NCBI GenBank assembly: GCA_035649615.1
Contig: DASRJF010000079.1
Location: 1 to 35,293 of the forward strand
Source: Planctomycetota bacterium
GTDB lineage: Bacteria > Planctomycetota > MHYJ01 > JACPRB01
DNA length: 35,293 bases
Direction: 5' to 3'
The notes below the pieces were generated by a model, which searched no databases, was not told where the DNA came from, and was given only the letters and a program-made list of their open reading frames with translations. This document shows, piece by piece, positions 3,285 to 31,217 of the stretch. A program made the translations under genes and the position numbers. Position 1 is the first letter of the stretch. Each line of letters opens with the position of its first letter.

Positions 3285-3292
3285 GCAATTCA

Positions 3293-5071: not shown

Positions 5072-5114
5072 CCAGGATCCTCCAGGGCGGTTTATACCAA
5101 GCCGACACCGGATT

Positions 5115-6728: not shown

Positions 6729-7525
6729 GACGGGCTCGGCGGCGGGCTTCCCACCCAGTCGAGGTCTCCCCCCTGCGACACGGTCCGCCCGACCAGCGTG
6801 ACGAAGACGTCGTCCAGCGCCGCGGCGGGCCCGAGTCCCGCCTGGGCGCCCAATTCCGCCACGGTGCCGATGCCGCGGAGCCGGCCCTCGTGGATGACCG
6901 CGATCCGCGTGCAGAGCTTCTCCACCACTTCGAGCACGTGCGACGTGTAGAAGATCGTCAACCCCTTTGCGGTCAGTCCCTGGAGCACCTTCTGGATGAC
7001 CTGGGTCGAGATCGCGTCGATGCCGTTGAAGGGCTCGTCGAGGAAGAGCACCTCGGGCCCGTGGATCAGGGCGCAGGCGAGCGCCGCCTTCTTCCGCATT
7101 CCCAGCGAATAGTCGATGACGAGGCGCGCGCGGTCCGCGGGCTCCAGGTCCACGAGGTCGAGCAGCCGCCCGGCCCGCCGCTCCGCCTCCTCTTCCGCCA
7201 CGCCGTGCATGAGGCCGCTGAAGACGACGAGCTCCCAGCCGGTGAGGCGGTCGAACGTCTCGATCGTGTCGGGGAGGATGCCGATCCGCGCCTTGACCCC
7301 GAGCGGGTCCGCCGCGACATCGCGGCCGGCGACGAGGACCTGGCCCGACGTGGGCTTCATCAGGCCGCAGAGCATCTTGATCGTGGTCGTCTTCCCCGCG
7401 CCGTTCGGTCCGAGGAAGCCGAAGAACTCCCCGCGTCCGACCGTGAAGGAGACGCTGTCGACCGCGAGCTTCTCCTTGAATCGCTTGGTGAGATCGACGG
7501 CGGCGATGCGGGGGGCGTCGTTCAT
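6725..7525 (-). CDS. ABC transporter ATP-binding protein
   Basis: Walker A GPNGAGKTT. Signature-like YSLGMRKKAALACAL. Walker B VLFLDEPFNGID. H-loop YTSHVLE. The ATG overlaps the stop of the upstream kinase (ATGA at 7522-7525). Confidence 0.93.
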   Translation of the reverse strand: MNDAPRIAAVDLTKRFKEKLAVDSVSFTVGRGEFFGFLGPNGAGKTTTIKMLCGLMKPTSGQVLVAGRDVAADPLGVKARIGILPDTIETFDRLTGWELVVFSGLMHGVAEEEAERRAGRLLDLVDLEPADRARLVIDYSLGMRKKAALACALIHGPEVLFLDEPFNGIDAISTQVIQKVLQGLTAKGLTIFYTSHVLEVVEKLCTRIAVIHEGRLRGIGTVAELGAQAGLGPAAALDDVFVTLVGRTVSQGGDLDWVGSPPPSPS

Positions 7526-11015: not shown

Positions 11016-14000
11016 TTGCCCATTGGGTATACTTGGTCGATGGAAGTGGGGAGCAAACCGCCGACGTCGGCCATCCACGGAGGAGCCACGGCTCCCGCCT
11101 CGCCCCCGGCCCGCGGGGGGGACGACCGGCTTCTCGGATCCCTGGCGGTCCGCGAGGGCTTCGTCTCCTCCCAGCAGGTCGAGGAGTGCGTGGCGCTCCA
11201 GAAATCGGCGGCGTCCCCCCGCAAGCTCGGCGAGATCCTCATCGAGAAGGGCTACATCACCGCGAAGCGGCTCATGGCCCTGCTGGACATCCAGAGCCGC
11301 CAGGTCCGGATCGTGGCGGCGGACCCGGCGCTCGGGGGGCTCTTCGGCCAGATCGCGCTCGACCTCGGCTTCGTGCCGGCGGACAAGATCGAGCAGGCCC
11401 TCCAGGAGCAGGCCTCGCTGTCGCGCACCGGGTCGCCCGCCATGCTGGGGCAGATCCTCCTGCGCAAGGGATGGCTCCAGACCGGGCAGTTCCTCGAGAT
11501 CCTCAAGGTCCAGCGGCGGACCATCCTGCGCTGCCCGGGCTGCGACACGTTTTACCGGTTCGAGGAGAAGGACCGCGGCTCGAAGTTCGCGTGCCGGCGC
11601 TGCGGGAACATCGTGCCGATCCCCGCGGCGGAGCCCGACGAACCGCGGGCCGGGGCGAGCCCGTCGGTCCCGGGGAAGCGCGCGGGAGAATCGGGGACCC
11701 AGTTCGGGCGGTACGCGATCCAGGAGGAGCTCGGCCGGGGAGGCATGGGGATCGTCTACAAGGCGCTGCACAAGGACCTGAACACCGTTTTCGCGCTCAA
11801 GATCCTGCGGGAGACGGAGATCTCGTCGGCGGAGGTCCTCGACCGGTTCAAGCGCGAGGCGCAGGCGGAGGCGCGGCTCCGCCACCCGAACATCGTCTCG
11901 ATCCACGATGCGGGCCAGGAGTCGGGCGTCCATTACCTCGCGATGGACTACATCGAGGGGGACCCGCTCACGACGCACCTCGCCCGGGGGTTCAAGATCC
12001 GCGACATGATCGCGCGCCTCGAGAAGGTCCTGCAGGCCGTCCACCACGCCCACGAGGAGGGGATCATCCACCGCGACCTCAAGCCCGCGAACATCATGAT
12101 CGACCTCGCGGGCGAGCCCCACGTCATGGATTTCGGGCTCGCCAAGTTCCTCGACGATCCGAAGCGCCTCATGCTGACGAAGGACGGGAGCTTCCTCGGC
12201 ACGCCCCATTACATGGCGCCGGAGCAGATCCGCGGCGAGGCGCGCCTCGTGGGCCCGCGCAGCGACATCTATTCGCTGGGGGTGATCCTCTACGAGATCC
12301 TGTGCGGCCGCACGCCCCACGTCGCGCCGAACAGCGTCGAGATCTTCCACAAGATCCTGACGGAGGAGCCGCCGCCGCCCCGGCTCTTCAACGCGCGCGT
12401 CCACCCCGACCTGCAGACGGTCTGCCTCAAGGCGATCGACAAGGACCCGGCGGTGCGGTACGCGACGGCCGGCGAGTTCGCGGACGACCTCCGGCGGTAT
12501 CTCGAGGGCGAGCCGATCCTGGCCCGGCCCCGGCCGTGGCCGATCCGCGCCCTCCGTCGCCTGCGGAAGAACAAGTCGACGGCCCTGGCCGCGATCTCGC
12601 TGTTCCTCTTCGCGATCTCCGGCGGCCTGGTCCTCTTCCTGATGTCGCGCGACGCGCGGGAGTTCGACCGGATCGCGAAGGAGGCGAAGGAGAGCTTCGA
12701 CGACCGGCAGTACGAGGAGGCCCTCCTGCACGCGCAGTCGGCGCTCCGCCTGCGGCCCGACGACAAGGCGATGGCCGAGTTCGTCGAGTGGGTCACGAAC
12801 CGGATCCGGACGCAGCGGGAGGAGTTCAGCAAGCGGCTCGTGCAGGACGAGAAGCGTCGGGAGGCCGAGCCCCGGATCGCCGCGGCGCGCATCATGCTGG
12901 AGATGATCCCGCGCCAGGCGGACCTCGACGGCGCGGGGGTCATGAAGCGGGCGGCGGAGGTCGAGAAGATCTTCGACGACGCGCTGAAGATCGTGACCGA
13001 CCACGAGGACGCGCTCCACGGGCGCGGCCGGGCCCGCATGCTGAAGGGGGACGCGGCCGGGGCGCTCGAGGATTTCGCGACGGTGTTGGAGAAGGCCCCG
13101 GGTCGCGTCGAGGCGCGCCAGGACGCGGCCCGCGTCCGGCTGTCGCTCGTGATCGAGGCGCGGCTGGTCGACCCGCGGCCCCCCGGCGTGCCTCCCGCCT
13201 CCGCCTTCGTGGAGGCCCGCAAGCGCGCGCACGCTGAATTTTCAGAGGTGTGGGCCAGCATGTCGCGCGACCCGGCGCGGGACGAATTCGCGCAGGCCGC
13301 GCTGCGGTGGCTCGATGGAAAGATCGCGGACGCGGCGGGCGGCCTGGACCGCTACGTCGGGTCGTACCCCGCGGATCCGGACGCGTGGCGGCTCCGCGCG
13401 ATGGCGCGGCTGGTCTCCGGGAATCCGGAGGGGGCGGAATCGGACCTGTCGATGGCGGCGCGGTATTCCCCGGGGGACGTCGTGACCCGGCTGGCGCGGG
13501 CGTGGGTTCGTCATGTCCGGGGGGACGCGGCCGGGGCCGACGCGGACCTCGCCGCGGTGGCGGCGCTGGCGCCGCAGAGTCCCGCGCGCGCGCTCCTGCG
13601 GGGCCGCATGCTGCTCGATCGGGGCGGGTTCCCGGCGGCGGCGGACGCGTTCGGCGCGGCGGCGGCCCTGGACCCCAAGTCACCCGGGGCGGCGCTGGGG
13701 ACCGGCTTGGCGCGCCTGCGGCGGGACGACCTGGAGGGTGCGCTGGCGCCGTTGCAGCGCGCGGCGGAGCTCGATGCCGCGGACGCCTGGCCGCTTCTGC
13801 TGCAGTCGGAGGTCCAGGAGCGACGGGGGCGCGCGCCGGAAGCGCTGGAGGCGTCGGAAGCGGCGGTCCGCCGGGCGCCGGACGCCGCGGTCGCGTACGA
13901 GCGGCGGGCGCGCGCGTGGGCGCGCCTGGAGAAGTTCCCCGAGGCGGTCAGGGACCTGGAGCGGGCCGTGAAGCTCGACCCCTCCTCCGCGGCGCGCCTG

Positions 14001-14048
14001 GACGCCGACCTGAAGGCGGCGCGGGCGCGGGTCTCCGGTCGGCCCTGA
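11016..14048 (+). CDS. Membrane Ser/Thr protein kinase STK2: two MshEN/T2SSE_N-like modules, zinc ribbon, Hanks kinase, TM helix, periplasmic TPR repeats
   Basis: The track start at 11016 is TTG. ATG 11040 is more likely because TATACT lies 6 nt upstream. Kinase motifs are GRGGMGIVYKA, FALKIL, HRDLKPAN, DFGLAK and GTPHYMAPEQ. The zinc ribbon is CPGC-x16-CRRC. The TM helix is ALAAISLFLFAISGGLVLFLM. The C-terminus has many TPR-like repeats. Confidence 0.9.
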   Translation: MPIGYTWSMEVGSKPPTSAIHGGATAPASPPARGGDDRLLGSLAVREGFVSSQQVEECVALQKSAASPRKLGEILIEKGYITAKRLMALLDIQSRQVRIVAADPALGGLFGQIALDLGFVPADKIEQALQEQASLSRTGSPAMLGQILLRKGWLQTGQFLEILKVQRRTILRCPGCDTFYRFEEKDRGSKFACRRCGNIVPIPAAEPDEPRAGASPSVPGKRAGESGTQFGRYAIQEELGRGGMGIVYKALHKDLNTVFALKILRETEISSAEVLDRFKREAQAEARLRHPNIVSIHDAGQESGVHYLAMDYIEGDPLTTHLARGFKIRDMIARLEKVLQAVHHAHEEGIIHRDLKPANIMIDLAGEPHVMDFGLAKFLDDPKRLMLTKDGSFLGTPHYMAPEQIRGEARLVGPRSDIYSLGVILYEILCGRTPHVAPNSVEIFHKILTEEPPPPRLFNARVHPDLQTVCLKAIDKDPAVRYATAGEFADDLRRYLEGEPILARPRPWPIRALRRLRKNKSTALAAISLFLFAISGGLVLFLMSRDAREFDRIAKEAKESFDDRQYEEALLHAQSALRLRPDDKAMAEFVEWVTNRIRTQREEFSKRLVQDEKRREAEPRIAAARIMLEMIPRQADLDGAGVMKRAAEVEKIFDDALKIVTDHEDALHGRGRARMLKGDAAGALEDFATVLEKAPGRVEARQDAARVRLSLVIEARLVDPRPPGVPPASAFVEARKRAHAEFSEVWASMSRDPARDEFAQAALRWLDGKIADAAGGLDRYVGSYPADPDAWRLRAMARLVSGNPEGAESDLSMAARYSPGDVVTRLARAWVRHVRGDAAGADADLAAVAALAPQSPARALLRGRMLLDRGGFPAAADAFGAAAALDPKSPGAALGTGLARLRRDDLEGALAPLQRAAELDAADAWPLLLQSEVQERRGRAPEALEASEAAVRRAPDAAVAYERRARAWARLEKFPEAVRDLERAVKLDPSSAARLDADLKAARARVSGRP
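11028..11033 (+). promoter_or_regulatory. -10 box candidate for STK2 (leaderless geometry)
   Basis: TATACT with exactly 6 nt before ATG 11040, so the predicted +1 is the A of the ATG. Confidence 0.35.
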
Positions 14049-14150: not shown

Positions 14151-17100
14151 CTAGAACTTCTTGTGGATGCGGGTGATGTCGCGGATCCGCGGGTCGCTGA
14201 CCGCCTGCGACACCGCTTCCTCGGCCTGGCGGGTTCCCTGCGCCGCCAGCGCGAGGACCGCCGCGGCGCGCGTCTCCTCCCCGAAGCCCTTCACGAGGCC
14301 GAAGAACCGGGGGCGCGTCTGCGCGATCTTCGTCAGGAGCGGCACCACGGCCGCGTTCGGGACCTGGCGGAAGTACGCCGAGCACAGGATCATGAGCGCC
14401 TCGTCCTGCGCCCCCTCGAGGATCTTCCCCACCTCGGCCTTCACCGCCTCGATCTTCATCTGCGCGGCCGCCTCGAGCCCCGAGTCCCTCAACTCCCTCG
14501 AGGAGTTCGCCAGCAGGCGGCGGATGATCCCCGCCACGACCGAGCGGGGCCAGTGCTCGGCCGACTTGAGAATGATCCCCCTCAGGTCCGGGCTGCCGTG
14601 CTCGGCCAGCATCGCCAGGTGCCCCGCGATCGGCGCCGTCAGGAGCGGTTCGATGACCTGCAGCACCCGCACCGTGCGCTCGATCGGGCCGTCCGGCGGG
14701 ATCAGGCGCATGATCTCCACCGCCAGCCGTTCCGCCGACGCGGACAGGGAGAGCGCGATCGCCCGGCGGATCCGCACGTCGGGCTCCTCCGCCAGGATGT
14801 CCACGAGCTTCTCCACGGTCGGGCCCCCGACCGCGAGGAGGATCGTGATGGCCGCGTTGCGGTCGTCCTCCGAGGGCTTCCTCACGGCCGCGCAGATCGC
14901 GTCGAACGCCATCGACTGCGGGATCAGAAGGAGCGCCGCCTCGCACACCGCCGCGACCTCGGGCGGCGTGACGGGGGAATCCGCCCGGCGCCGGAGCGTC
15001 CGGCCCGCGATCTCCGCCAGCTCCCCGAGGCATCCGGACGCCGCCGCCGCGGGGATCCAGACCGGAAGCAGGTTCACCGCGGCGCGCACGTGGAGCGGCT
15101 CCGTGTCCTCCGACAGTCTCATCTTGAGCGACGCGGCCGACCGCATGACCGCGAGCTTGCGCGTCCCCGGCGAGGCGAACGCGATCGACCGCGTCAGGAG
15201 GTTGAACGCCCGCGTCCGGTGCGAGAGGCTCGGATGGTGGAAGTGGGTTCCCAGCCGGTCCACGAGCTGCTCCGCGACGGGCCGTCCCGCGCCGTACGCG
15301 AGGGCCTCCACCAGGAGCGGGAACTGCCGCTCGAGGTCGGGCGTGAGGAACTCCTCGTTCGAGCGCGCCAGGTGCTCCCGCGCCCGGATCTCCGACCGCA
15401 CCGGCTTGGGCGGAGGGTGCAGCGGCATCTCCAGGTCGTCGGTCGCCCGCTCGTAGACGCGCGCGCCGAACGCGACGTGGCTGAATTGCGTGAAGAGCCG
15501 GTCCCCCGTGCCGGGCTGCATCGCCTCCTCCGGCGACAGCGAGAAGTAGCTGATGAGGGCCCGGATCTCGTCCTCCATCAGGCCCCGCCCGATGAGCACG
15601 CTCTTGATCTTGCGGTGGTCGATCTCCTTCGTCAGCCAGGCGCCCGCGTCGCTGAAGAACTTCGCGTCCGCCGGATGACCGTTGAGCACCAGTTCGGCGT
15701 CGGCCGTTCCCCACGCCACGGCCGGCACCTTGCGCAGGAGTTCCATGAAGGCGCGGACGCACTGGGCCGTCGTTTCTTCCACGAGCGTGTGGCCCGGCGG
15801 GTAGCGCTTCAGGTTGTCGACGCCCGCTTTGAGATACCGCATCGCGTCCCGCACCGCCGGCAGGTCGTCGGCGGGCACGGGCTTGTCCGCCGCTTCCAGG
15901 CGCACCCGGCGCATCGTTTCCCGGGCCTGGTACGCCTTCTGGACGATGTCGACCGCCTCCATGGCCTCGCGCGCCAGGAACCGCTCCCAGAAGTCGGGCG
16001 CCGCGCGCGCCCGGTCGAACGGCTCCGTGAAGTTCCGGACGATCGTCTCGATCCGCGGGGTCTCGAACGGGGGAAGAATGGTGATCGATTCAACGAGACG
16101 GTCGTCGAGGAGCCGTCCGAAATCCGCCGCGACCGGATTGTCGGTCTGGACGCCGTTGATCGCCGGCCCGTTCGTCGTGACGGAGAAGGTCAGCCCGGGG
16201 CCCCCGATCAGGAGCGCCTCGAGCGACCCGCGAAGCTGCGCGAGGAACGTGGTGCCGACCTGGCTCCACTGCGGATAGAGGCGCCCGATCTTCACCGCGG
16301 CCATGAAATGGCGCATCAGGGCCAGGCTTTGTTCGGTGGCCGACGCCGCCAGGTTCGTGGTCACCGCCGGAAGGCGGGGTCTCCGGGATCCCGCCTTGGC
16401 GGGCGGCTGGATGAGCGTCGCGCGCTTCTGGGCCACCTCGTCGAACTTCCGCGCCTTCGCCTCCCGGCCGGCCCGGTTGTAGTGGAACGCGATCTCGTCC
16501 GCGATGTGGTCGATGTCGCCGCCGTGGCGCGCCTCCTGCACGACGCCGACGCGGTCGTGGATCTCCTTCCGCTCCGTCGCGTCCGACGTCTGCAGCCGGA
16601 CGCGCCGCGCGTGGGCCGCCGGGAAGGAGAGGAGGTCCTGCCCCGACTCGGAGGGGACCAGCAGGCGGGTCCGCCGGACCTCGTCGATGAGGTCCAGCAT
16701 TTCCGTGTCGCCCTCGCCGAGGACTTCCTGCAGCAGCTCGGGATCGAACCGCGTGCCGATCACGGCCGCGCGCGTGAGCAGGCTGTTCGCGCCGGTCGGC
16801 AGCGCCTCGGCGACGGCGCGGATGGCGCCCGCGAGATCGCGCGAGAGGTCGGACGGCAGGAGCTCCGGCAGCGACCACCGGCCCGCCGACTGCTTCATCC
16901 GGCCGCGCAGCAGGAGGGAGCGGACGGTCTCCTCGAGGTAGAGCGGGTTGCCCTGCGACGCCACGATGAGCCGCGCCACCGATTCGTTGCTGATTTCCGC
17001 GTCGGGCAGGATGCCGCGGATCATCTGGCGCAGGTCCTCGGCAGGCAGGGGCAGCAGGTTGAGGCGCGCCGCGCCGGGCGCGAAGTCCCGCCAGAAGGCG

Positions 17101-18215
17101 CCCGAGGGCGTCATCTCCATTTCCGTCGACGGCCGGGCCGACCCGACGGCCACCAGGATCGGCAGCTTCCGGTTGATCGCCGCCCGGTACACCTCGAACG
17201 TGGCGCCGTCGGCGAATTCCACCTCGTCGATCAGCGCCAGCAGGGGGCCGATCCGCGACAGCTCATCGAAGAGCGCCCCGAAAGCCTCGAAGACCAGGCG
17301 GCCCGCGTTGCCGGGCGGCACCTGCTCCGCGGACCACTCCGGCGGAAGATCCCGCAGGACGATCGCCAGGGCCGCCCGATGCGGGGGGCTGATCCGCTCC
17401 ATGGCCTTGAGGACCATGGGGCGGTCATAGGCCATCAGCGTCTCGATTTGCTCCGCGAGCGTCGAATACGGAGCGGTGGAGCGCGACTCCTGGCTCGTGG
17501 CCGTCAGGAGGACGAACTTCTCGATCCGCGACCAGACGCCCAGCTCGTGCAGGAGCCGCGACTTGCCGACGCCGGAAGCGCCGGTGACGATCGCGACCGA
17601 CGGTCCGACGTTGCGGACGTCGCTCGCGAGCTGCCGCATGCGCGACTGCTCCCCGACCCGGCCCACGAGGATCGGGCACGGAAGTCCGCGGAAGATGCCG
17701 ATCTCCGCGAGCGCCACCGGGTCGAGCCGCCCCGCGACCGCGATCTTGTTGTGGCCCTGGTGCTTGGCGACCAGGAGCGCTCTCTCCGAAGCCTCGATCA
17801 CGGCGGCCGGGGACTTGCCGTCCATCGGATAGCTCGCCACCGACGCGCTGGCCGTCAGCGTGACCTGCCGGCCGCCTGCCGTGAAGGGCTTGTGGTCGAC
17901 CGCGCCCCGCAGTTTCTCCGCGGTGGCGGCTCCCTTGTCGCGGTCGGCGTCGGGAACGAGCAGGCAGAACGAGTCGCCGCCGTAGCGGAACAGGAGCGCC
18001 CCGTCGCCGGCGGCTTCCTTCAGGCGGGCCGCGACCTCCCGGAGCAGGGCGTCCAGCTTCGGGCGGTCGAGGCCCTCGGTCGTGGCGTTGAAGGCGTCGA
18101 GGTCGACCAGGACGAGCGCGCCCGCGTGGGCGGGCATCCGCTCGCGAAGGGCGGATAGAAGGCCCCGGCGGTTGCCGAGCCCGGTCGCGAGATCCTGATG
18201 TGAAGGGTCGACCAT
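14151..18215 (-). CDS. Degenerate GGDEF domain, P-loop (AAA_16/STAND-like) NTPase and long helical/HEAT-repeat region, 1354 aa
   Basis: The N-terminus reads DLATGLGNRRGL..LVLVDLDAFN..RYGGDSF (17967-17981). Walker A is GASGVGKS (17559-17582) and Walker B is LLALIDEVEFAD. The C-terminal third has HEAT-like repeats, e.g. EEPDVRIRRAIALSL, GSPDLRGIILKSA and DPRIRDITRI. Confidence 0.8.
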   Translation of the reverse strand: MVDPSHQDLATGLGNRRGLLSALRERMPAHAGALVLVDLDAFNATTEGLDRPKLDALLREVAARLKEAAGDGALLFRYGGDSFCLLVPDADRDKGAATAEKLRGAVDHKPFTAGGRQVTLTASASVASYPMDGKSPAAVIEASERALLVAKHQGHNKIAVAGRLDPVALAEIGIFRGLPCPILVGRVGEQSRMRQLASDVRNVGPSVAIVTGASGVGKSRLLHELGVWSRIEKFVLLTATSQESRSTAPYSTLAEQIETLMAYDRPMVLKAMERISPPHRAALAIVLRDLPPEWSAEQVPPGNAGRLVFEAFGALFDELSRIGPLLALIDEVEFADGATFEVYRAAINRKLPILVAVGSARPSTEMEMTPSGAFWRDFAPGAARLNLLPLPAEDLRQMIRGILPDAEISNESVARLIVASQGNPLYLEETVRSLLLRGRMKQSAGRWSLPELLPSDLSRDLAGAIRAVAEALPTGANSLLTRAAVIGTRFDPELLQEVLGEGDTEMLDLIDEVRRTRLLVPSESGQDLLSFPAAHARRVRLQTSDATERKEIHDRVGVVQEARHGGDIDHIADEIAFHYNRAGREAKARKFDEVAQKRATLIQPPAKAGSRRPRLPAVTTNLAASATEQSLALMRHFMAAVKIGRLYPQWSQVGTTFLAQLRGSLEALLIGGPGLTFSVTTNGPAINGVQTDNPVAADFGRLLDDRLVESITILPPFETPRIETIVRNFTEPFDRARAAPDFWERFLAREAMEAVDIVQKAYQARETMRRVRLEAADKPVPADDLPAVRDAMRYLKAGVDNLKRYPPGHTLVEETTAQCVRAFMELLRKVPAVAWGTADAELVLNGHPADAKFFSDAGAWLTKEIDHRKIKSVLIGRGLMEDEIRALISYFSLSPEEAMQPGTGDRLFTQFSHVAFGARVYERATDDLEMPLHPPPKPVRSEIRAREHLARSNEEFLTPDLERQFPLLVEALAYGAGRPVAEQLVDRLGTHFHHPSLSHRTRAFNLLTRSIAFASPGTRKLAVMRSAASLKMRLSEDTEPLHVRAAVNLLPVWIPAAAASGCLGELAEIAGRTLRRRADSPVTPPEVAAVCEAALLLIPQSMAFDAICAAVRKPSEDDRNAAITILLAVGGPTVEKLVDILAEEPDVRIRRAIALSLSASAERLAVEIMRLIPPDGPIERTVRVLQVIEPLLTAPIAGHLAMLAEHGSPDLRGIILKSAEHWPRSVVAGIIRRLLANSSRELRDSGLEAAAQMKIEAVKAEVGKILEGAQDEALMILCSAYFRQVPNAAVVPLLTKIAQTRPRFFGLVKGFGEETRAAAVLALAAQGTRQAEEAVSQAVSDPRIRDITRIHKKF

Positions 18216-18224
18216 GAAAGCCGG

Positions 18225-18230
18225 ATTATA
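18225..18230 (-). promoter_or_regulatory. -10 box candidate for the GGDEF-STAND gene (near-leaderless)
   Basis: Perfect TATAAT on the minus strand ending 9 nt before ATG 18215. No SD sequence is present. Confidence 0.35.
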
Positions 18231-18253
18231 CGACGGCGGCCCCGGACCCCGAG

Positions 18254-18295
18254 GGAATCTGGAATCTCGAATTTAGAATTTGAACGGCGGAATTC
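18254..18295 (+). repeat. Heptanucleotide tandem array of 6 units (nGAATnT type)
   Basis: GGAATCT GGAATCT CGAATTT AGAATTT GAACGGC GGAATTC. The reverse complement contains GAATTCCGCCGTTC, close to GATTCCGCCGATC at 31226-31238. Confidence 0.8.
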
Positions 18296-18319
18296 CGACG
18301 ACGAGGCCCGACCTTCGGC

Positions 18320-20350
18320 TCAATTCCCCTCGTTGAGCTGGTGCAGGTACTCCGACGCCTGGCCTTCGAACTGGGTCCCCTTGAGCTCCCGAAGCAGGTC
18401 CCGGGCCATGGCCGGATAGTTCGCGGACATGGCGTACAGCGCGAGCGCGAACTTGTTCCCCGGCGAATCGAGCAGGGGAGGGAGCTTGTCGGTGCGGGTC
18501 AGGGCCATTTCGCGGATCCCCGTCGGCCCGAACTTGGACCACGGAGCGAAGTCCGACGGCTGCTGCCCGATGACGTAGATGACGCCGTCCGTCTGGGCCT
18601 TCGTGAGCGTCACATTCTTCGCCTGCGTCGTCCCGATCGTCAGCTTCAACAGGTACGGATTCGTCGCCAGGATGCGATCGATGAGCTGCTGCTTGAACAT
18701 CGCGATGTGCTCCCGGCGGCGCAGGATCTCGCTGAACTCGGGCCGCTTCAGCACGTCCGGGCCGAGCGAATCGACCAGGTCGGGACGGAATTCCTCCAGG
18801 TGTTTCATCGCCTTGTCCGTGGAGGTGCCGCTTTCGAACCAGCTCCGGATCCTCGACTGGAAGATGAACGTGGCCGAGGCCGCGATCAGCATCAGGAAGA
18901 CCACGAGCAGGATCGGGACCCACCGGCCCTTGCGCGATCCCAGCGACTCGGCGATGTCCTGCATCCCCGCCGGGAGCGTATTGACGGACGCCATCTTCGG
19001 AAGCGACCGCTTGCCTCCCCCCGAGACGTTGGCCAGCTCCTCGGCGAACGCGAGCGCGTTCTGGGGACGCTTCTGCGGATCCTTGGACAGGGACCGCATG
19101 CACAGCGCCTCCAATTCCGGGGGGACGACGAGCATCCGGCGCGAGGAGGCCGCCGCCGAGTCCCGGCCCCAGGCCAGCTCGCTCGGCGCCTTCGGTTTCT
19201 CATCCTGGACGCGCTTGAGGACGTCCATCACCTCGCCGACGAACGGCGGCTGCCCCGCCAGCATCTCGTAGAGGATCGACCCCAGGCCGTACACGTCGGT
19301 GCGCGGATCGAGCAGGTCGTTGCGCCCCGCCGCCTGCTCCGGCGCCATGTACGACGGCGTCCCGCTCACCACGCCCTGCTCGACCTTGATCTCGCCGAGC
19401 TGGCGGGCGAGGCCGAAGTCCAGGATGCAGGCGCGTCCCTCGCCCGTGACCATGATGTTCGCGGGCTTCAGGTCGCAATGGAGCAGCGGCGCCGGCCGCG
19501 TGTGCGCATAGTGGAGCGCCTGCGCCGTCTCGTAGAGGACGCCGATCCACTTCCGCGGATTCTCGTGGAAGGGCGAGACCTTGCCGGCCTTCTTGCACTC
19601 CTGGATCTCGTCGAGCATCGTCCGGCCGTCGAGGAACTCCATGCTGATGTAGTACTCGTCCTCGACCCGGCCGATGTCGTAGATCGACACGATGTTCGGA
19701 TGGCGGAGCTTGATCGCGTTGTGGGCCTCGTTGAGGAGGCTCGCGACCCGCGTGTGGCGGACCGCCTTGCCCGAGCCCTGCGGCGGAGGCTTGATCCGCT
19801 TGAGCGCCACGAGCTGGTTCAGGTAGACGTCCCACGCGCGGTAGATCGCGCCGATGCCCCCGCGCCCGATCTCGCCCAGGATGACGTACTTGCCGAACCG
19901 CTTGGAGGGATCCTTGCGCGCCTCGATGACATCGGGCGGGACCGGCGCGCTGCTGGCGACGATGATCATCGAGTCGATGCTGTCGTCCGGGCGGTCCGGC
20001 GACGGCTCGATGAGAATCGTCTCGCACTTCCCGCACTTGTAGCCGATGGCGTCCGGCCGCAAGTTGACCGTCACCATGATGTTGCAGCGCGTGCAGAGGA
20101 GGACCTTCTTGTTCTGCTCCGCGAGGGCGTCGCGGATGGCCTCCTTGGTCGTGTAGCCCTTCTGGAGCAGCAATTCGCCGATGCGCGGGACCACCGCCTG
20201 GCCCTGCATCGACTGCTGGATCTTCAGGCATTCGTCGAGGTGGACCACGGTGACGGACCCCATCCGGAGCAGGATCTGCCCCATGTCCGCCCGCGGAGGC
20301 GCGGACAGGGCGGGAGACGTCACCGGGCCGGGCGGAGGGGGAATAGCCAT
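18320..20350 (-). CDS. Membrane Ser/Thr protein kinase STK3: one MshEN/T2SSE_N-like module, zinc ribbon, non-RD Hanks kinase, TM helix, uncharacterised extracytoplasmic domain
   Basis: Track ORF 18320..20548. The real start is probably ATG 20350 (MAIPPPPGPV), because upstream of it the ORF is Arg/Cys-rich shadow. Motifs are GRGGIGAIYRA, VALKRI, HCDLKPAN (non-RD), DFGLAR and GTPSYMAPEQ. The zinc ribbon is CTRC-x16-CGKC. The TM helix is WVPILLVVFLMLIAASATFIF. Confidence 0.9.
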   Translation of the reverse strand: MAIPPPPGPVTSPALSAPPRADMGQILLRMGSVTVVHLDECLKIQQSMQGQAVVPRIGELLLQKGYTTKEAIRDALAEQNKKVLLCTRCNIMVTVNLRPDAIGYKCGKCETILIEPSPDRPDDSIDSMIIVASSAPVPPDVIEARKDPSKRFGKYVILGEIGRGGIGAIYRAWDVYLNQLVALKRIKPPPQGSGKAVRHTRVASLLNEAHNAIKLRHPNIVSIYDIGRVEDEYYISMEFLDGRTMLDEIQECKKAGKVSPFHENPRKWIGVLYETAQALHYAHTRPAPLLHCDLKPANIMVTGEGRACILDFGLARQLGEIKVEQGVVSGTPSYMAPEQAAGRNDLLDPRTDVYGLGSILYEMLAGQPPFVGEVMDVLKRVQDEKPKAPSELAWGRDSAAASSRRMLVVPPELEALCMRSLSKDPQKRPQNALAFAEELANVSGGGKRSLPKMASVNTLPAGMQDIAESLGSRKGRWVPILLVVFLMLIAASATFIFQSRIRSWFESGTSTDKAMKHLEEFRPDLVDSLGPDVLKRPEFSEILRRREHIAMFKQQLIDRILATNPYLLKLTIGTTQAKNVTLTKAQTDGVIYVIGQQPSDFAPWSKFGPTGIREMALTRTDKLPPLLDSPGNKFALALYAMSANYPAMARDLLRELKGTQFEGQASEYLHQLNEGN

Positions 20351-20426
20351 AAGCGGCCCCGGGTCGATCCCGGGGTCCGCATAGATAATACACAAATCGC
20401 GGTCGAGGAGGGAGCCCGGCGAGCGA

Positions 20427-21962
20427 CTACGGCGGCGCCCCGGCCAGGTCCGCAGGCAGGTGGGCCAGCCCGATCCGGGAGCCCCCGGCCGCCGCGAGCA
20501 GGCGTTCCACGACCACGCGCAGCTCCCGCACGTTGCCCGGCCAGGCATGGGATTCCAGGCGGCGCCGGACCTCGGGGTCGAGATGATCGTCGAGCGAACC
20601 GACGCCGCGGCCGCCGAGCGTCCTCAGGAAATGATGGAGGAGCGCCGGCAGATCGCCCATCCGATCGCGCAGCGGGGGCAGCGCGACCACGTCGCCGAAC
20701 CGGCGGTCGAAGCCCTGTCCGCTGGAGGCGCCCGCCAGGACCCGAACGTCCTCCTCCACCGACGGCTCTTCCACGAGGACGAGGAGCCGCTCGCGGATCG
20801 GTTCCGCCATCGTGTCGAGGCCGTCGACATACAGGGTGCCGCCGCGCGCCTCGGCGACGCGACCCCCGGCCCCGAACAAGGCCGCCTCGAGGAGGCCGGG
20901 CGCGACGGCCGCGCCGCGGACCGACACGAACGGTCCCACGGCGCGGGGTCCGAGGGTGTGAAGCCGCCGGGCCGCCCGCTCCTTCCCCGTGCCGGGCTCG
21001 CCCGTGAACAGGACCGGCGTGTCCGACGAGGCCGCGCGCTCGATGCTCGCGATGGCGGCGGACAGGGCGCCCGAGGTCACCAGCTCGCATCCCTCCGCCA
21101 GGCGTCCGGCGGCCGCGGCCACCGCCTCGCGGGCCCGCCGCATCCGGCGCGCGGTGGCGATCGCCCCGGCGCCGAAGGACGCGATCCACGCCGCGTAGCG
21201 AAGGTCGGCGCGCGTGAAGGCCGGCGGCGGGGCGTCGAGGTAGACGAACCCCAGCATGTCCCGGCCCGCCGCGAGGGGCGTCGCCAGCACCTCGACGGGC
21301 CGGCCCGACCACGTCCCTCCCCGCGCCGCGTCCGACGCGAGCACCGACTTGCGCTCCTTCCACACCTTGTGGAAGAGCACGTTCGAAAGCTGGATCTCGT
21401 CGTCCCCCGGGGGAGCGCGCCGCGCCGCGGGCTGGAGGCGGCCTCCTTCTGAAGCCAGCATGACAAAGCCCCGGCGCGCCTTCAGATCCGTCACCAGGCG
21501 GTCGAGGAGCATCCGGACCGCCGTGTCTTCCGGCTCCGCCCCGTGGAACGCGCGCGCGGCGTCGAGCGTGGAGGCCGTCCGCGCGGCATCGAGCGCCTCG
21601 TCGAACGGATCCTCGAGCGTTTCGGTGACGAGCGTCGCCCCGCCGGGCCGCGAGCGGGGCGAGCTGTCGCGCTCGGCCGTGGGATCGAAGACGAGCAGGT
21701 GCTCGCCGATCTCGATCTCGTCGTCGCGCGAGAGGTCCTTTTCGGCGACCTTCTGCCCGTTCACGAAGATCCCGTTGCGGCTCCCCGCATCCTGGATGGC
21801 GAACCCTGCGGAACGGCGCACGAATCGTGCGTGCACGCGGGAGATGTGGTTGCCTTCGATGCGGACGGCGCAAGAGACCGCACGGCCGACGGTGCTTCCG
21901 TCGTCGATTTCGAACGTCCGGCCGCGCAGCGGGCCTTCGACGGCGACGAGTCGGGTCGTCAT
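20427..21962 (-). CDS. FHA, GAF-like and sigma-54-interaction-type AAA+ protein with no DNA-binding domain
   Basis: Start at ATG 21962 (MTTRLVAVEGPLRGRTFEI), which overlaps the upstream stop (ATGA at 21959-21962). FHA motifs are GRAVSCAVRI..ISRVHARF..DAGSRNGIFVNG. AAA+ motifs are VLFTGEPGTGKE, GGTLYVDGLD and WPGNVRELR. The protein ends about 30 aa after the sensor-II region. Confidence 0.85.
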   Translation of the reverse strand: MTTRLVAVEGPLRGRTFEIDDGSTVGRAVSCAVRIEGNHISRVHARFVRRSAGFAIQDAGSRNGIFVNGQKVAEKDLSRDDEIEIGEHLLVFDPTAERDSSPRSRPGGATLVTETLEDPFDEALDAARTASTLDAARAFHGAEPEDTAVRMLLDRLVTDLKARRGFVMLASEGGRLQPAARRAPPGDDEIQLSNVLFHKVWKERKSVLASDAARGGTWSGRPVEVLATPLAAGRDMLGFVYLDAPPPAFTRADLRYAAWIASFGAGAIATARRMRRAREAVAAAAGRLAEGCELVTSGALSAAIASIERAASSDTPVLFTGEPGTGKERAARRLHTLGPRAVGPFVSVRGAAVAPGLLEAALFGAGGRVAEARGGTLYVDGLDTMAEPIRERLLVLVEEPSVEEDVRVLAGASSGQGFDRRFGDVVALPPLRDRMGDLPALLHHFLRTLGGRGVGSLDDHLDPEVRRRLESHAWPGNVRELRVVVERLLAAAGGSRIGLAHLPADLAGAPP

Positions 21963-23854
21963 CTCGTGATTTTCAACGTCTTCTTCATCCGTTCCAGCGC
22001 GGGCCGGCAGGCGTCCTCGTCCCCCTTCAGGACGACCTCGAGCACCTCGCCGGGGCCCAGGCGCACGTACCACCGGCTGTCGGTCTCGTAAGTCTCGCGC
22101 CCCTCCAGCGTCCCCAATTCTCCTGACGACGAGGCGCCCAGCTTCCGTGCGGCCTTTCGGGTGTCGAGCTTGACGAGCTCGTACGGCAGGTCGATGTAGC
22201 TCACGATCGCCCGGTTGTCCGGGTCGGCCGATCCGATCACGGCGAGCGTGAACGGCGGGAGATCCTTCGCGTCGCGGAACGTCCAGCCCTCGGGCTTCTC
22301 GAATGCGACGCCGAGGAGCGGCGCCTCGAAACGGTTCCCCTCCGCCGCCGGCGGCGGCGCCACTTTCGTGGCGCGGCCCTCGATCGTGTAGTCGAGGATC
22401 TCGATCTTCATGGCGCCGTGCATGAACCCCGCGCCCCGCATTCCCTCGAGCGTCGAGCCGGAATCTTCCGCGTCCGTCTCGCTGAACTTGAGGCGGGCCG
22501 CGTCGGCGACGCTCCCGCCGAGCGTCGCGTCAAAGTCCACCCACCGCCCCAGCCAGGCGCTCGTCCACGCGTGGCCTCCCCAGGCGCCGCGGTAATAGAG
22601 GTACCCGCAGCACACCTTCGCGGGGATTCCCGCCGCGCGGAACATGGCCGCCAGGAGGACCGCGTGCTCGGTGCAGTCCCCGGTCCGGTTCGTGTAGACC
22701 TCGCGGGCGCTCGCCGCCCCGATGTCCATGCTCTTCTTGTCGATGTGGTTGTGCACCCACGCGGCGAGGCGGCCGGCCACGAGGGCGGGGTCCTTCTCGT
22801 CTCCGGCGATTTTCCGGGCCTCCGCCGCGATCTCCGCGTCATCGCATTGAACGGCCGGCGACGGCTTGAGGAAGATCGCCAGGTCCGGACCCGGCGTTCC
22901 GGTCGTGGGCTGACTCGACTCCACGCGCAGGGTCACGGATCGCGCGCTCCGGTTGACCACCGACTGGGTCCCGGCCGGGGCTTTCCATTCCGCGAAGACC
23001 TCGTCGGGCCGCGTCATCTGGACGGTGAGGGCCGTGATCTCGCGGGGACGGGGAAGCGCGACGTTCGACCGCGGCATGGTTCCGAAGAAGACCTCGGGCA
23101 TCTCGGCGCCGGTGTTCTTCAGCGCCTCCTCCCGGGTCGCGGGCTCCATGACGATCTTGATCCCCATCATGTTGGTTTCCATCGCGACGGAGGACGCCTT
23201 GTCGTCCATCCAGGAGGTGATGGCGATGCCCGGTTGAAGCGACGTCTTCGTGAGGACGCGGACGAGCTCCTGTTCGCGGCCCTGGAAAGTCTTCTTCTCG
23301 CGGCCTTCCACGAGAATGGAGATCTCGTCGGGCTTCCCCAGTTCCGCGTTGAAGCTCTTGAGCGTGTAGGCGGTTCCCTTCGCGAATCCCTTCTTGAGCG
23401 TGGCAAGCCGCATTCCCTCGGACAGGATCCACTCGGGGTCCCAGGCGATCTCGGATTCGCGGGTCGCGCCTCCGGTCGTGGTCGACAGCTTGAGCCGGCC
23501 GTCCTTGATGACTCCCTCGTTCACGGTCGGGGACGACGACATCACCATGCGCGACGTGAAGCGCAGCGGCCGGCCGTCGGGAGTTTCGACATGCCGCGTG
23601 TCCGTCGTGACCTCGATGCCGGTGCCCATGCGCTTCAGGACCATGCGGGACTTGACTTGCGTTTCGACCTCGTCGGGGCGGCACGTCCGCGTGCCGTGGA
23701 CGTAACCGACGCGCACGGCGCGCTCTCCCACCACCGACATGATTCCCCAGCTCTCCTCGACCTGGACCTCGGGCTTCGGCGGCGCGAGGGGGGCCGGCAC
23801 GTGGCTGTCGCACGCCGAGGCGAGGAGAAGAAGGAGGGCGACGGCGGCGCGCAT
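21959..23854 (-). CDS. Transglutaminase-like (Cys-His-Asp) lipoprotein
   Basis: Start at ATG 23854 (MRAAVALLLLLASAC, lipobox-like ASAC), with GGGAG 7 nt upstream. The core is TGDCTEHAVLLAAMFRAAGIPAKVCCGY..GGHAWTSAWL..WVDFDAT. Confidence 0.85.
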   Translation of the reverse strand: MRAAVALLLLLASACDSHVPAPLAPPKPEVQVEESWGIMSVVGERAVRVGYVHGTRTCRPDEVETQVKSRMVLKRMGTGIEVTTDTRHVETPDGRPLRFTSRMVMSSSPTVNEGVIKDGRLKLSTTTGGATRESEIAWDPEWILSEGMRLATLKKGFAKGTAYTLKSFNAELGKPDEISILVEGREKKTFQGREQELVRVLTKTSLQPGIAITSWMDDKASSVAMETNMMGIKIVMEPATREEALKNTGAEMPEVFFGTMPRSNVALPRPREITALTVQMTRPDEVFAEWKAPAGTQSVVNRSARSVTLRVESSQPTTGTPGPDLAIFLKPSPAVQCDDAEIAAEARKIAGDEKDPALVAGRLAAWVHNHIDKKSMDIGAASAREVYTNRTGDCTEHAVLLAAMFRAAGIPAKVCCGYLYYRGAWGGHAWTSAWLGRWVDFDATLGGSVADAARLKFSETDAEDSGSTLEGMRGAGFMHGAMKIEILDYTIEGRATKVAPPPAAEGNRFEAPLLGVAFEKPEGWTFRDAKDLPPFTLAVIGSADPDNRAIVSYIDLPYELVKLDTRKAARKLGASSSGELGTLEGRETYETDSRWYVRLGPGEVLEVVLKGDEDACRPALERMKKTLKITR

Positions 23855-24019
23855 CGGTTGGCTCCCGGGAACGGATGACAGGGAACGAGCTACCCCTGCT
23901 TGAAGTCGGCCCAATGGGTCAGAGTATATACGACGCCGGCCGGGACACTTCCGTCCGTGCCGGGACAGACTCCAAGACTGGGCGTCCCTGAAGTGTGAGA
24001 ACGGGGAGCCGGGGAACTT

Positions 24020-24358
24020 CTAACGCCGGGAACTGAAGCAGTCGCTGCAGTACACGGGCCGGTCGCCGCGCGGCTTGAAAGGGACCTGCGTCTGCTTGCC
24101 GCACTGGGCGCACACGGCGGGGAACATTTCCCGCGGTCCCCCGCGTCCGCCGCCCATGCCGCCGCCGCCGCCCCCGCCGCCGCCCCCGCCGCGCCCGCCC
24201 CCGCCGCCGCCGGTCGCCGCCTTCTTCGCCGCCCGGCAGGGGGCGCACCGCTTGGGCTCATTCGTGAACCCGAGCTGGGCATGCCGCTCCTGCTCCGCCG
24301 CGGTGAACGTGAACGCCGCTCCGCACTCCACGCACGTCAACTGCTTGTCCGTGTACAT
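24020..24358 (-). CDS. Small double zinc-ribbon protein (CxxC..CxxC twice) with a Gly/Arg-rich linker
   Basis: Start at ATG 24358 (MYTDKQLTCVECGAAFTFTAAEQE). The Cys pairs are CVEC..CAPC and CAQC..CSDC. The linker GGGGGGRGGGGGGGGGGGMGGGRGG is encoded at 24137-24211. Confidence 0.75.
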   Translation of the reverse strand: MYTDKQLTCVECGAAFTFTAAEQERHAQLGFTNEPKRCAPCRAAKKAATGGGGGGRGGGGGGGGGGGMGGGRGGPREMFPAVCAQCGKQTQVPFKPRGDRPVYCSDCFSSRR

Positions 24359-27616: not shown

Positions 27617-29125
27617 GTGCCCTTCGGTCCCTTGCCGACGCCCAAACCCTCGACCGCGTCGGAGTCCATCCTGGCCCGCACCCCGTCGTACGAAGTCATC
27701 ACCCAGCCCCGCGGCCCCTGGCTTCTCATCACCCTGCGCGGCATGTACGACGAAGCCATGGTCGAAATCCTCCGCTCGAAGATCTTCACCCGGAAGTCGT
27801 CGTTCGCGTTCGATCTCACCAACCTCAGCGGCGTCACGATCCAGCTCGCCCGCGAGCTCTACTTCACCGCGAACAAGTTGAGGTCCGGCGAGCACCGGCT
27901 CGTCCTCGTCAACCCCGGCGAGAAAATCAGCAGCCTCATCCTGCTCATCGCCCGCGACGCCAAGATCGCGAGCTTCCCCTCCCTCGAGGAGCTCCCGTCC
28001 GATCCCCGCTCGCTCGAACAGCAGATCGAGCGCCTCGAGGTGGAGTTCGAGGAGATCCGGAAGAACCTCTTCACGAACCCGCTCTGGCAGTTCGTCGACC
28101 GCGATTCCTGCTGGCTCTGCCCCTTTTGCGCGAACGCGGTCGAGGACGTCAAGATCGTCTCGCGCGTCTCGATCGCCCGCCAGACGCTCGACAACCTCTA
28201 CCGCCATCTCCACCGCCGCTGCATCGGCTTCAACCCCAAGATGCCGCGCTTCAAGCCGCAGGCGGAGCTCGAGACGAAGCTCAAGAAGGTCAACGCGGAG
28301 AAGTTCTCGGCCTCCAAGACCCTGACCACGGCCCTCGAGTCGAAAGTGAAGGTGCTCGCGGACAAGGCGCAGCTCGCGGACTCCCTCGAGCAGAGCCTCA
28401 GGATCGCCGTCGACCGCCAGCAGCGCCTGCTCCCCGCCAAGCCGCCGCAGCTCCCGAACTGCGACATCGCCCTGACGTACCGCCCCGCCCAGCGGCTCAG
28501 CGGGGACTTCTACGATTTCATCGACATGGGCCAGGGCCGCATGGGGTTCGCCATCGGCGACGTGGCGGGACACGGCATCGAGGCGGGCATCCTCATGGGA
28601 ATGACCAAGAAGGTGCTGAACATCCGGGCGAGCGAACTGATGGACCCGGTCGAGGCGATGAAGCAGACCAACCTCGACGTCTACAAGGATCTCGACCGCC
28701 AGACCTTCGTCACCGCGTTCCTCGGGATGCTCGACCCGGAGAAGCGCACGCTGACCTACGCGCGGGCGGGACACAATCCGCCGCTCATCTACAACAAGGA
28801 CCGGACGCCTCCCCACGGGAAGCTCGAGGCCGGCGGGATGATGCTCGGCATGGCGCCCGGCGCCCTCTTCGACCGCGTCATGGTCGCGGAGACGCTCCAG
28901 CTCCAGGCGGGCGACATCATCCTGATCTACACGGACGGATTGGAAGAGGCGAAGAACGACAAGAGCGAGCTCTTCGGGTTGGCGCGATGCACGCCCGTGC
29001 TCGAGCACGACGCGGACCGGCCCGCTTCCTACATCCTGGGCGCGATCGCGTTCGAGCTCGAGCGGTTCTGCGGGATGCTCCCCCAGGAAGACGACATCAC
29101 CGCCATCTGCCTGAAGATCAGCTGA
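27617..29125 (+). CDS. STAS domain, Cys/His-rich coiled region and PP2C (SpoIIE/RsbU-type) Ser/Thr phosphatase
   Basis: GTG start with GGAGGA 7 nt upstream. The STAS-like N-terminus is WLLITLRGMYDEAMVEILRSKI..FDLTNLSGVT. PP2C motifs are LSGDFYDFIDMGQGRMGFAIGDVAGHGIEAG and ILIYTDGLEEAKN. Confidence 0.88.
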   Translation: MPFGPLPTPKPSTASESILARTPSYEVITQPRGPWLLITLRGMYDEAMVEILRSKIFTRKSSFAFDLTNLSGVTIQLARELYFTANKLRSGEHRLVLVNPGEKISSLILLIARDAKIASFPSLEELPSDPRSLEQQIERLEVEFEEIRKNLFTNPLWQFVDRDSCWLCPFCANAVEDVKIVSRVSIARQTLDNLYRHLHRRCIGFNPKMPRFKPQAELETKLKKVNAEKFSASKTLTTALESKVKVLADKAQLADSLEQSLRIAVDRQQRLLPAKPPQLPNCDIALTYRPAQRLSGDFYDFIDMGQGRMGFAIGDVAGHGIEAGILMGMTKKVLNIRASELMDPVEAMKQTNLDVYKDLDRQTFVTAFLGMLDPEKRTLTYARAGHNPPLIYNKDRTPPHGKLEAGGMMLGMAPGALFDRVMVAETLQLQAGDIILIYTDGLEEAKNDKSELFGLARCTPVLEHDADRPASYILGAIAFELERFCGMLPQEDDITAICLKIS

Positions 29126-31122: not shown

Positions 31123-31217
31123 GGTCGGCCTCCCTCCTGTCGTGGGCCACACGAGCCCGTCCTATTTTGGGAGCCCGTAAGGGCATCCCGCTAGACAGTG
31201 GAGGCTGACCTTCTCAT

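Follow-up and report, generated by a model that had tools for sequence, protein, structure and literature searches.

The DNA analysed here (hereafter the window) is a stretch of 35,293 nucleotides from a Planctomycetota bacterium (assembly GCA_035649615.1, contig DASRJF010000079.1) with a G+C content of ~70%. Four genes at its centre follow each other on the minus strand. They encode a transglutaminase (TGase) lipoprotein predicted to be periplasmic (21959-23854), an FHA–GAF protein with a degenerate σ54-type AAA+ domain (20427-21962), the Hanks-type Ser/Thr kinase STK3 (18320-20350) and a cytoplasmic protein of 1354 aa that joins a degenerate GGDEF domain (GGDSF, written GGDEF* below) to an AAA_16 STAND module, a long helical region and HEAT repeats (14151-18215). 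A first-pass annotation had proposed that these genes form a single supra-operon coupling cyclic di-GMP (c-di-GMP) to Ser/Thr phosphorylation. Its layout of the genes proved accurate: an ATGA overlap joins the TGase stop to the FHA gene start, a 76-bp spacer containing TATTAT and the GC palindrome CCCCGGGATCGACCCGGGG separates the FHA and STK3 genes, and a 104-bp spacer containing TATAAT separates STK3 from the STAND gene. We find, however, that the four-gene array is not one fixed module and probably not one operon; it is best explained as a lineage-specific juxtaposition of conserved signalling pairs.

The nearest relatives of the window are Planctomycetota metagenome-assembled genomes (MAGs), and the JGI metagenome contig Ga0075420_100002318 (L110) is identical to it. 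L-numbers denote the related loci that were compared with the window (W). Our own gene caller, based on open reading frames (ORFs) and GC3, was crude and fused some ORFs; it was used only beside tblastn and database gene calls. The whole 25 kb around the array is common to close relatives with 75-85% protein identity. Shared order at this identity says little on function, and distant relatives tell more. An STK3 orthologue lies directly upstream of a STAND orthologue in ~11 diverged Planctomycetota lineages (L009/L023, L018, L022, L024, L115, L117, L119, L121, L128, L129 and L130), with spacings of mostly 0-16 bp and unrelated flanking genes. STK3 and the GGDEF*–STAND–HEAT protein thus form a conserved core pair. 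The STAND orthologues make up a family of ~43 clusters that align over their full length at 48% identity or more, followed by a drop to 28%. There is roughly one orthologue per lineage, its divergence tracks that of the kinase, and STK3 orthologues occur in similar number.

The TGase–FHA unit has a narrower distribution, being found upstream of the STAND gene only in the window's clade, L009 and L010. L009 has the order zinc finger–TGase–kinase–FHA–small ORF–STK3–GGDEF*-STAND, both flanks are wholly different, and its TGase and STAND proteins are 47% and 52% identical to those of the window. L010 has the order zinc finger–TGase–FHA–STAND and no STK3. The array is thus present beyond this genome, in full in L009 and in part in L010, whereas STK3 and STAND alone are kept together in ~8 other lineages with informative upstream sequence. 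L009 is basal in a neighbour-joining tree, which suggests that the joined state is old and has been broken repeatedly. A genome scan with the TGase alignment listed matches of the generic TGase-core pattern at 24-32% identity, close orthologues not being among the matches listed; at least 80 of these distant homologues had no partner gene beside them. TGase relatives with 41% or 36% identity likewise had none. The TPR, M61 peptidase–PDZ and ABC ATPase genes that the window carries at 2281-7525 are present in L010/L020 too (L020:10105-15431), where they follow the STAND gene. STK1, STK2 and STK3, the three kinases of the window, were not found at that locus, so either the window's clade acquired them or L010 lost them.

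Pfam identifies AAA_16 in the STAND protein with 45.1 bits, and HEAT_2 falls just under its cutoff (27.6 versus 27.7 bits). The Walker A motif GxGKS is kept. The family alignment shows no change at G215, G217 and K218 or at D330 of Walker B, and almost none at E331, the second Walker B residue. The profile also matches alphaRep/HEAT structures at positions 1092-1237, and searches of the PDB with the STAND–HEAT part gave nothing besides GGDEF and HEAT repeats. With its P-loop AAA_16 domain, helical arm and C-terminal repeats the protein has the architecture of a STAND NTPase. The nearest non-orthologous matches of the STAND region are fusions of the type Pkinase–AAA_16–GAF–GGDEF, which provide Rosetta-stone support for the pairing with a kinase, and the TOMM kinase/cyclase fusion model (TIGR03903) matches both STK3 and the STAND protein.

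The N-terminal domain is clearly related to GGDEF domains (PF00990, 82.9 bits; PDB matches to PleD, WspR and others with E-values of 1e-13 to 1e-19). Its signature motif reads RYGGDSF in the window, and the consensus of 19 orthologues is RYAGDAF, i.e. xGDxF. The RxxD I-site, five residues upstream of the GGDEF motif, is absent (GDGA in the window versus RDVD in the cyclase 5m3c), and the substrate-contact segment FK..ND..GH..GD has changed to FN..TE..DR..LD. Judging from these residues, the GGDEF domain is catalytically dead family-wide and not a cyclase, and a role as a c-di-GMP receptor of the I-site type is unlikely.

Paralogues of the STAND protein occur elsewhere. A second GGDEF*(GGDAF/GGDSF)–STAND–HEAT protein, 28-30% identical, is encoded at another locus in genomes of the window's clade (L027:1110-5384, from the MAG of L001; L025; L124), and in L124 it has Hanks kinases on both sides. 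More distant GGDEF–STAND–HEAT paralogues (24-25% identity) are tandem gene pairs without kinases (L126:1253-8016; L210:1763-10332). The L126 pair, which was checked, has a near-canonical AGDEF motif, and FK..ND..GH..GD is intact in its first copy. Distant paralogues of this type may be active STAND-controlled diguanylate cyclases. Because they retain AGDEF and an intact substrate segment, the GGDEF–STAND–HEAT architecture probably began as a STAND-controlled cyclase, and since the tandem pairs lack kinases, the kinase link appears specific to the window's orthologous family and the one paralogue locus L124.

STK3 consists of an MshEN-like four-helix unit (residues 22-79), a zinc ribbon (CxxC-x16-CxxC), the kinase domain, a transmembrane helix (474-501) and an extracytoplasmic C-terminal domain of ~175 aa. 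Pfam recognizes the kinase domain (Pkinase), and hydropathy identifies a single-pass receptor-type kinase. The motifs VALK181, HCDLKPAN291, DFG311 and APE336 mark a Hanks-type enzyme. As HCD replaces HRD, STK3 is a non-RD kinase, a feature kept across the family.

The N-terminus of STK3 had been annotated as an MshEN domain, and here sequence models and structure prediction give different answers. Pfam found neither MshEN nor T2SSE_N in STK2 or STK3 at E ≤ 10. The NCBIfam model NF053729, a 53-residue MshE-related c-di-GMP motif with a cutoff of 38 bits, scored 55.6 bits with STK2 and 33.7 bits, under the cutoff, with STK3. By phmmer the STK3 N-terminus matches the c-di-GMP-binding GSPII domains of Thermus thermophilus PilF with E-values of 5e-8 to 1e-5. 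The AlphaFold2 (AF2) model has helices at 23-30, 35-47, 57-64 and 69-78 (pLDDT about 70-78) followed by the zinc ribbon. In Foldseek the eight best PDB matches of the model are PilF-GSPIIB (8pdk) and MshE (5htl), both bound to c-di-GMP, with a root mean square deviation of 0.9-1.8 Å, a probability of 0.99-1.0 and 24-32% identity over 56-61 residues. On the strength of this model, the STK3 N-terminus is an MshEN-type four-helix fold.

Binding of the nucleotide is another matter. MshEN is built from two tandem 24-residue motifs, RLGxx(L/V/I)(L/V/I)xxG(L/V/I)(L/V/I)xxxxLxxxLxxQ, joined by a 5-residue spacer, and fusions of MshEN to Ser/Thr kinases have already been listed (Wang et al. 2016, PMC5013675). 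In MshE, Arg9 at the start of motif I stacks on guanine, and mutating conserved motif residues markedly cuts binding (PMC5013675). Motif I of STK3 (DMGQILLRMGSVTVVHLDECLKIQ) instead begins with an Asp that is nearly invariant in 21 family members. Motif II (RIGELLLQKGYTTKEAIRDALAEQ) fits the MshEN motif save for position 12. The spacer between the motifs has 10 residues in the window and ~12 in orthologues, versus 5 in MshEN, and thus departs from the 53-residue unit. The strict MshEN motif is absent from STK1, STK2 and STK3; with the published relaxed motif only motif II matches in most STK3 orthologues, and STK2 matches at one of four half-sites. The c-di-GMP coupling proposed in the first-pass annotation is therefore not borne out: because the GGDEF domain appears dead and lacks the I-site, and because Asp takes the place of the key Arg in motif I, c-di-GMP is at most a possible input to STK3.

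The FHA protein was annotated as FHA-GAF-AAA+. The FHA domain is clear (PF00498, 56.9 bits), the GAF domain is marginal (22.5 bits versus a cutoff of 22.4, with GAF_3 under its own cutoff) and the AAA+ domain, detected as a partial Sigma54_activat (65 bits) with AAA_lid_14, is degenerate. The phosphothreonine-contact residues R27, S41, R42, H44 and N63 of the FHA domain are invariant in five orthologues, down to 48% identity. Alignment with PspF and the L009 orthologue reveals that a deletion of ~12 residues has removed GAFTGA in the window's clade. Walker A (GEPGTGKE) is intact, Walker B (LYVDGL) has Gly for Glu (DE to DG) and the first Arg-finger region is deleted. Pfam finds no HTH_8, the helix-turn-helix (HTH) domain, and the AAA lid is the last element of the chain; the L010 protein lacks the Walker A lysine as well. 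The protein is nevertheless 79-86% conserved within the clade, and the intergenic regions of the window cluster contain no σ54 site resembling TGGCAC-N5-TTGC. Having lost GAFTGA, the Walker B Glu and the HTH domain, it can neither activate σ54 transcription nor regulate by binding DNA. It probably persists as a phospho-dependent adaptor.

The L009 orthologue is a full σ54 enhancer-binding protein (EBP). It scores 224 bits with Sigma54_activat and has GAFTGA (LFGHEKGAFTGA), the Walker B DE and HTH_8. An exact σ54 promoter (TGGCACGCGCCTTGC, TGGCAC-N5-TTGC) lies ~125 bp past the EBP stop and 35 bp before a 71-aa ORF, and this site was matched in 0 of 100 shuffles. This promoter–ORF region (L009:15586-15850) is probably the direct target of the adjacent FHA-EBP. 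The ORF itself, which has no counterpart in the window, encodes a signal peptide and a highly charged tail rich in Arg, Asp and Glu, and is followed by a terminator-like GC hairpin and T-run.

A query restricted to the FHA–GAF part recovered orthologues with 43-54% identity from seven more genomes. Six of these have the FHA–GAF gene immediately downstream of a gene for a small soluble Hanks kinase (276-300 aa), with no TGase encoded nearby. In nzgw515, SRP292972_co2_155 and SMAG_U3121 the FHA–GAF gene, preceded by its own small kinase and lacking a TGase neighbour, is on another contig than the STAND locus of the same MAG. The output end of these proteins varies: L132 has a weakened AAA+ domain (89 bits, no GAFTGA) with HTH_8, and L133-L139 have FHA–GAF–HTH_8 proteins of 342-384 aa with no AAA+ domain. 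The window clade and L010 have the degenerate AAA+ domain without HTH. Genes of the AAA+-less type, each with the small kinase gene in front, are found at L133:9127-11080, L134:7343-9324, L135:2324-4203, L136:9096-11032 and L139:2711-4699. The catalytic loop of these small kinases reads H(G/S/A)D-x-(G/V/T)-P-x-N, and so lacks the RD arginine as well as its lysine; these proteins may be atypical kinases or pseudokinases.

The TGase protein matches PF01841 with 69.7 bits and has the lipobox LLLASAC. Its Cys-His-Asp triad (C394, H428, D440/D442) is invariant in 13 orthologues. The AF2 model (pLDDT 83) comprises an N-terminal beta-barrel resembling DUF1849, LprG and LolA, a TGase-like Cys-protease core and a C-terminal PsbP-like domain, and Foldseek matched it to 3isr, 6ntr, TgpA (6g4h) and CyanoP (2lnj). 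Upstream of the TGase gene in all three lineages with the TGase–FHA unit (the window's clade including L001, L009 and L010) lies a gene for a zf_Tbcl zinc-finger protein, at 24020-24358 on the minus strand in the window (PF13451 and PF23477; NCBIfam TIGR04272). This protein has two treble-clef halves of the CxxC type, connected by a linker of ~30 Gly/Arg residues (GGGGGGRGGGGGGGGGGGMGGGRGG).

Transcription of the array was examined by alignment of the intergenic regions. A scan with σ70 promoter and terminator consensus patterns gave nothing in the cluster, and −10-like boxes were seen only through the clade alignment. They are conserved across the window's clade before the TGase, STK3 and STAND genes, in spacers that have otherwise diverged. 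The box CGTCGTATATACTC (23918-23935, minus strand), the putative promoter of the TGase–FHA unit, is kept in W, L001, L120 and L112 while its flanks diverge. The putative STK3 promoter in the 76-bp gap (20378-20395, minus strand; GTGTATTATC/GTGTATAATC) has the form GTGTAT(T/A)ATC. The putative STAND promoter CGTCGTATAATCC (18218-18235, minus strand; TATAAT) is kept across the clade and ends 9 nt before the ATG, which implies a leaderless or near-leaderless mRNA. The pattern GTAT[AT][AT][TA][AC][TC] matches only four times in 35 kb, each time a short way ahead of a gene start on the minus strand. In place of a single supra-operon, the conserved boxes most likely mark three transcription units (TGase–FHA, STK3 and STAND) with possible read-through. 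The heptamer array described for the STK3/STAND spacer exists as a repeat; it has only 2.7 copies (TRF score 31) and is common only to the closest relative, L111.

Around the array the window is rich in further signalling genes. STK2 (11016-14048, plus strand; Pfam, NF053729) converges on the array and encodes two MshEN-like units, a zinc ribbon, a kinase domain, a transmembrane helix and TPRs. Its N-terminus was described as having the same architecture as that of STK3, to which it is similar, except that STK3 has one MshEN-like unit. STK2 was seen in window-clade loci only and is outside the conserved core. STK1 diverges from STK2, and its gene overlaps an ABC ATPase gene. At the left edge (1-1976) a partial Pkinase, from the N-lobe to the catalytic loop, is fused to an AAA_16 STAND in a gene that runs off the window, so that a second kinase–STAND combination, as a fusion, lies within 35 kb. 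For these three kinase genes gene calls and Pfam agree with the first-pass annotation. Its STAS-PP2C phosphatase is a SpoIIE/PP2C gene at 27617-29125, 4 kb from the cluster on the opposite strand, in whose protein N-terminus Pfam detects no STAS domain at E ≤ 10.

Between the ABC ATPase and M61 peptidase genes, a minus-strand ORF of 448 aa (5347-6693), in a region with strong AT skew (0.24-0.33), has no Pfam match and is presumably the permease partner. An IS110-family transposase gene (DEDD_Tnp_IS110 and Transposase_20; 30046-31152) lies between the PP2C region and a gene for a sigma factor of the extracytoplasmic function type (31305-32045). A protein with a Ppx/GppA phosphatase and an HD domain, a (p)ppGpp/polyphosphate enzyme near the signalling cluster, is encoded at the right edge (33484-35277).

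Several known systems resemble parts of the array. Myxococcus xanthus has FHA-domain σ54 EBPs controlled by Hanks kinases (Jelsbak, Givskov & Kaiser 2005, as cited in PMC12288465). These likewise have an FHA N-terminus fused to a σ54-type AAA+ domain and an adjacent Ser/Thr kinase gene, and the L009 orthologue resembles them further in GAFTGA, both Walker motifs, HTH_8 and the downstream σ54 promoter. The window protein differs in lacking GAFTGA, the Walker B Glu, part of the Arg-finger region and the HTH domain, in the GAF domain between FHA and AAA+ and in the translational coupling of its gene to that of a lipoprotein TGase; orthologues in other lineages drop the AAA+ domain entirely. The best PDB sequence match to the window AAA+ domain is Brucella NtrX (5m7n), a σ54-family AAA+ protein that aligns without a GAFTGA loop. 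NtrX, however, is a response regulator that keeps its DNA-binding domain, whereas the window protein has FHA and GAF inputs, a degenerate Walker B and no HTH. With MshE (5htl) and PilF-GSPIIB (8pdk) STK3 shares two tandem helix-hairpin motifs forming a four-helix unit; it differs in the motif I Asp, the longer spacer and a zinc ribbon in place of the C-terminal MshEN subdomain. The TGase shares with Pseudomonas aeruginosa TgpA (6g4h) and the putative Cytophaga cysteine protease 3isr a TGase/papain-like core, a Cys-His-Asp triad and the periplasmic location. Unlike the polytopic membrane protein TgpA, it is a lipoprotein, and it carries in addition a beta-barrel at the N-terminus and a PsbP-like domain at the C-terminus.

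Closest to the core pair are fusions of kinase, STAND and cyclase (Pkinase–AAA_16–GAF–GGDEF, the TOMM proteins of TIGR03903 and class III cyclase–AAA_16–TPR proteins), which combine the same type of AAA_16 STAND with a Hanks kinase and a cyclase-fold domain. By analogy STK3 and STAND resemble a split version of such fusions, with the differences that the kinase is encoded separately, as a membrane protein, the GGDEF domain is N-terminal and apparently dead, and the sensor arm is made of HEAT repeats and not TPRs. The region also encodes a Hanks kinase, an FHA reader and a PP2C phosphatase, as do the PpkA/PppA/Fha1 set of the type VI secretion system (T6SS) and the actinobacterial FhaA/FhaB–PknB–PstP cluster. 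The 35-kb window and the related loci contain no T6SS genes, the window contains no RodA/PbpA division genes, and the PP2C gene, outside the window's clade, is not beside the cluster in the loci examined. We thus agree with the first-pass annotation that the array maps onto neither of these two systems.

We propose that two conserved signalling pairs, STK3–STAND and TGase–FHA, have been joined in this lineage of uncultured soil and groundwater Planctomycetota, a reading to which we assign a probability of about 0.55. The gene order, the domain states and the conservation pattern on which it builds are direct observations. From these we infer which protein phosphorylates which, the ligand and the output as follows. 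The outer domain of STK3 would sense an envelope signal, perhaps one made by the TGase, and its MshEN-like unit may also sense a nucleotide. STK3 would then phosphorylate its own threonines and/or those of the STAND protein, creating docking sites for the FHA domain. NTP-driven oligomerisation of the STAND protein would gather the dead GGDEF domains as an interaction or ligand-binding surface and not as cyclases. The FHA–GAF reader, here without a small kinase and a transcriptional output of its own and presumably co-expressed with the TGase, plausibly reads threonines phosphorylated by STK3. Several points weigh against this reading. The STK3–STAND pair is not obligatory: the STAND gene has no kinase gene next to it in L116 and L123, and in L010 it comes straight after the FHA gene. 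The full array with changed flanks is seen in L009 alone. L010 has wider synteny with the window, including TPR, M61-peptidase and ABC genes, so that its TGase–FHA–STAND adjacency may be an inherited order and not a selected linkage. The neighbour-joining tree is rough, all relatives used throughout are MAG or metagenome contigs, the −10-like boxes hint at separate transcription of the units in the window, and the role proposed for the TGase is purely one that we infer.

A rival view is that the adjacency of TGase–FHA and STK3–STAND is functionally meaningless, an inherited order in a kinase-rich genome whose units belong to separate pathways. The units are apart in most lineages, each has its own promoter-like box, the long-range synteny of L010 fits an inherited order and Hanks kinases of this architecture have many paralogues in Planctomycetota, several of them on one contig. 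We consider this unlikely because L009 keeps all genes together at ~50% protein identity with both flanks replaced; in addition FHA readers need a kinase, and the window FHA gene has lost its small kinase and has STK3 as the nearest one. Somewhat less probable still is the original proposal that all four genes form one supra-operon in which c-di-GMP, sensed by the MshEN unit and the degenerate GGDEF domain, is coupled to Ser/Thr phosphorylation. In its favour, the genes are co-oriented with no terminator detected between them, and the array is seen again in L009 and, in part, in L010. The N-terminus of STK3 adopts the MshEN fold and is similar to c-di-GMP-bound PilF and MshE domains, STK2 exceeds the cutoff of the NCBIfam model related to MshE, and certain degenerate GGDEF domains are known to act as c-di-GMP receptors. 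This proposal ranks lower because of the split arrangement and the domain states: most lineages have the array split, the window has three conserved −10-like boxes inside it, the GGDEF domain lacks the RxxD I-site and has decayed nucleotide-contact residues, and STK3 has Asp for Arg in motif I, a spacer of 10-12 versus 5 residues (PMC5013675) and a score under the NCBIfam cutoff.

Given the existence of Avs-like STANDs and of defences based on kinases, a role in anti-phage defence or conflict was also considered for the kinase and STAND protein. STAND NTPases and Ser/Thr kinases do occur in defence systems, the STK3 kinase domain matches the PADLOC models PD-T4-6 and mad6, and the IS110 transposase is 12 kb off. 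We rejected this reading as very improbable: the PADLOC matches are to generic kinase (and AAA+) domains only, the STAND, TGase and zinc-finger proteins have no match, and no nuclease, protease or other toxic effector domain is present, a dead GGDEF occupying the effector position. The presence of about one STAND orthologue per lineage, tracking the kinase, is also unlike patchy defence islands. Going beyond the joining of the two pairs, STK3 and GGDEF*-STAND-HEAT could conceivably form a kinase–STAND signalosome of a kind not yet described, gated by a nucleotide. The ligand, a guanine nucleotide or a cyclic dinucleotide, would bind to the Asp-variant MshEN-like unit and/or the dead GGDEF domain, STAND oligomerisation would control kinase output, and the decayed σ54 activator would have been reused as an FHA adaptor to the periplasmic TGase. 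We regard this as a speculative extension that is rather improbable at present.

The types of component found here are all known, namely Hanks kinases, FHA readers, STAND NTPases, degenerate GGDEF domains, MshEN–kinase fusions and GAFTGA-less EBPs. A literature search on GGDEF with STAND or AAA_16 returned nothing relevant, and we found no description of the conserved pairing of an STK3-type kinase with a GGDEF*-STAND-HEAT protein or of the graded decay of an FHA-EBP, both of which are apparently undescribed. Planctomycetota encode very many Hanks kinases, nearly all of them without a known partner; for STK3 there is now a conserved partner that can be tested, a STAND ATPase headed by a dead GGDEF domain. 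The labels GGDEF and MshEN do not alone indicate c-di-GMP signalling in this lineage. Overall, one and the same FHA–GAF reader occurs with four outputs: a σ54 EBP that is intact and has its promoter, a degenerate AAA+ domain with HTH, HTH only and a degenerate AAA+ domain without HTH. If the signalosome reading is true, the family records the stepwise conversion of an EBP into a σ54-independent phospho-adaptor.

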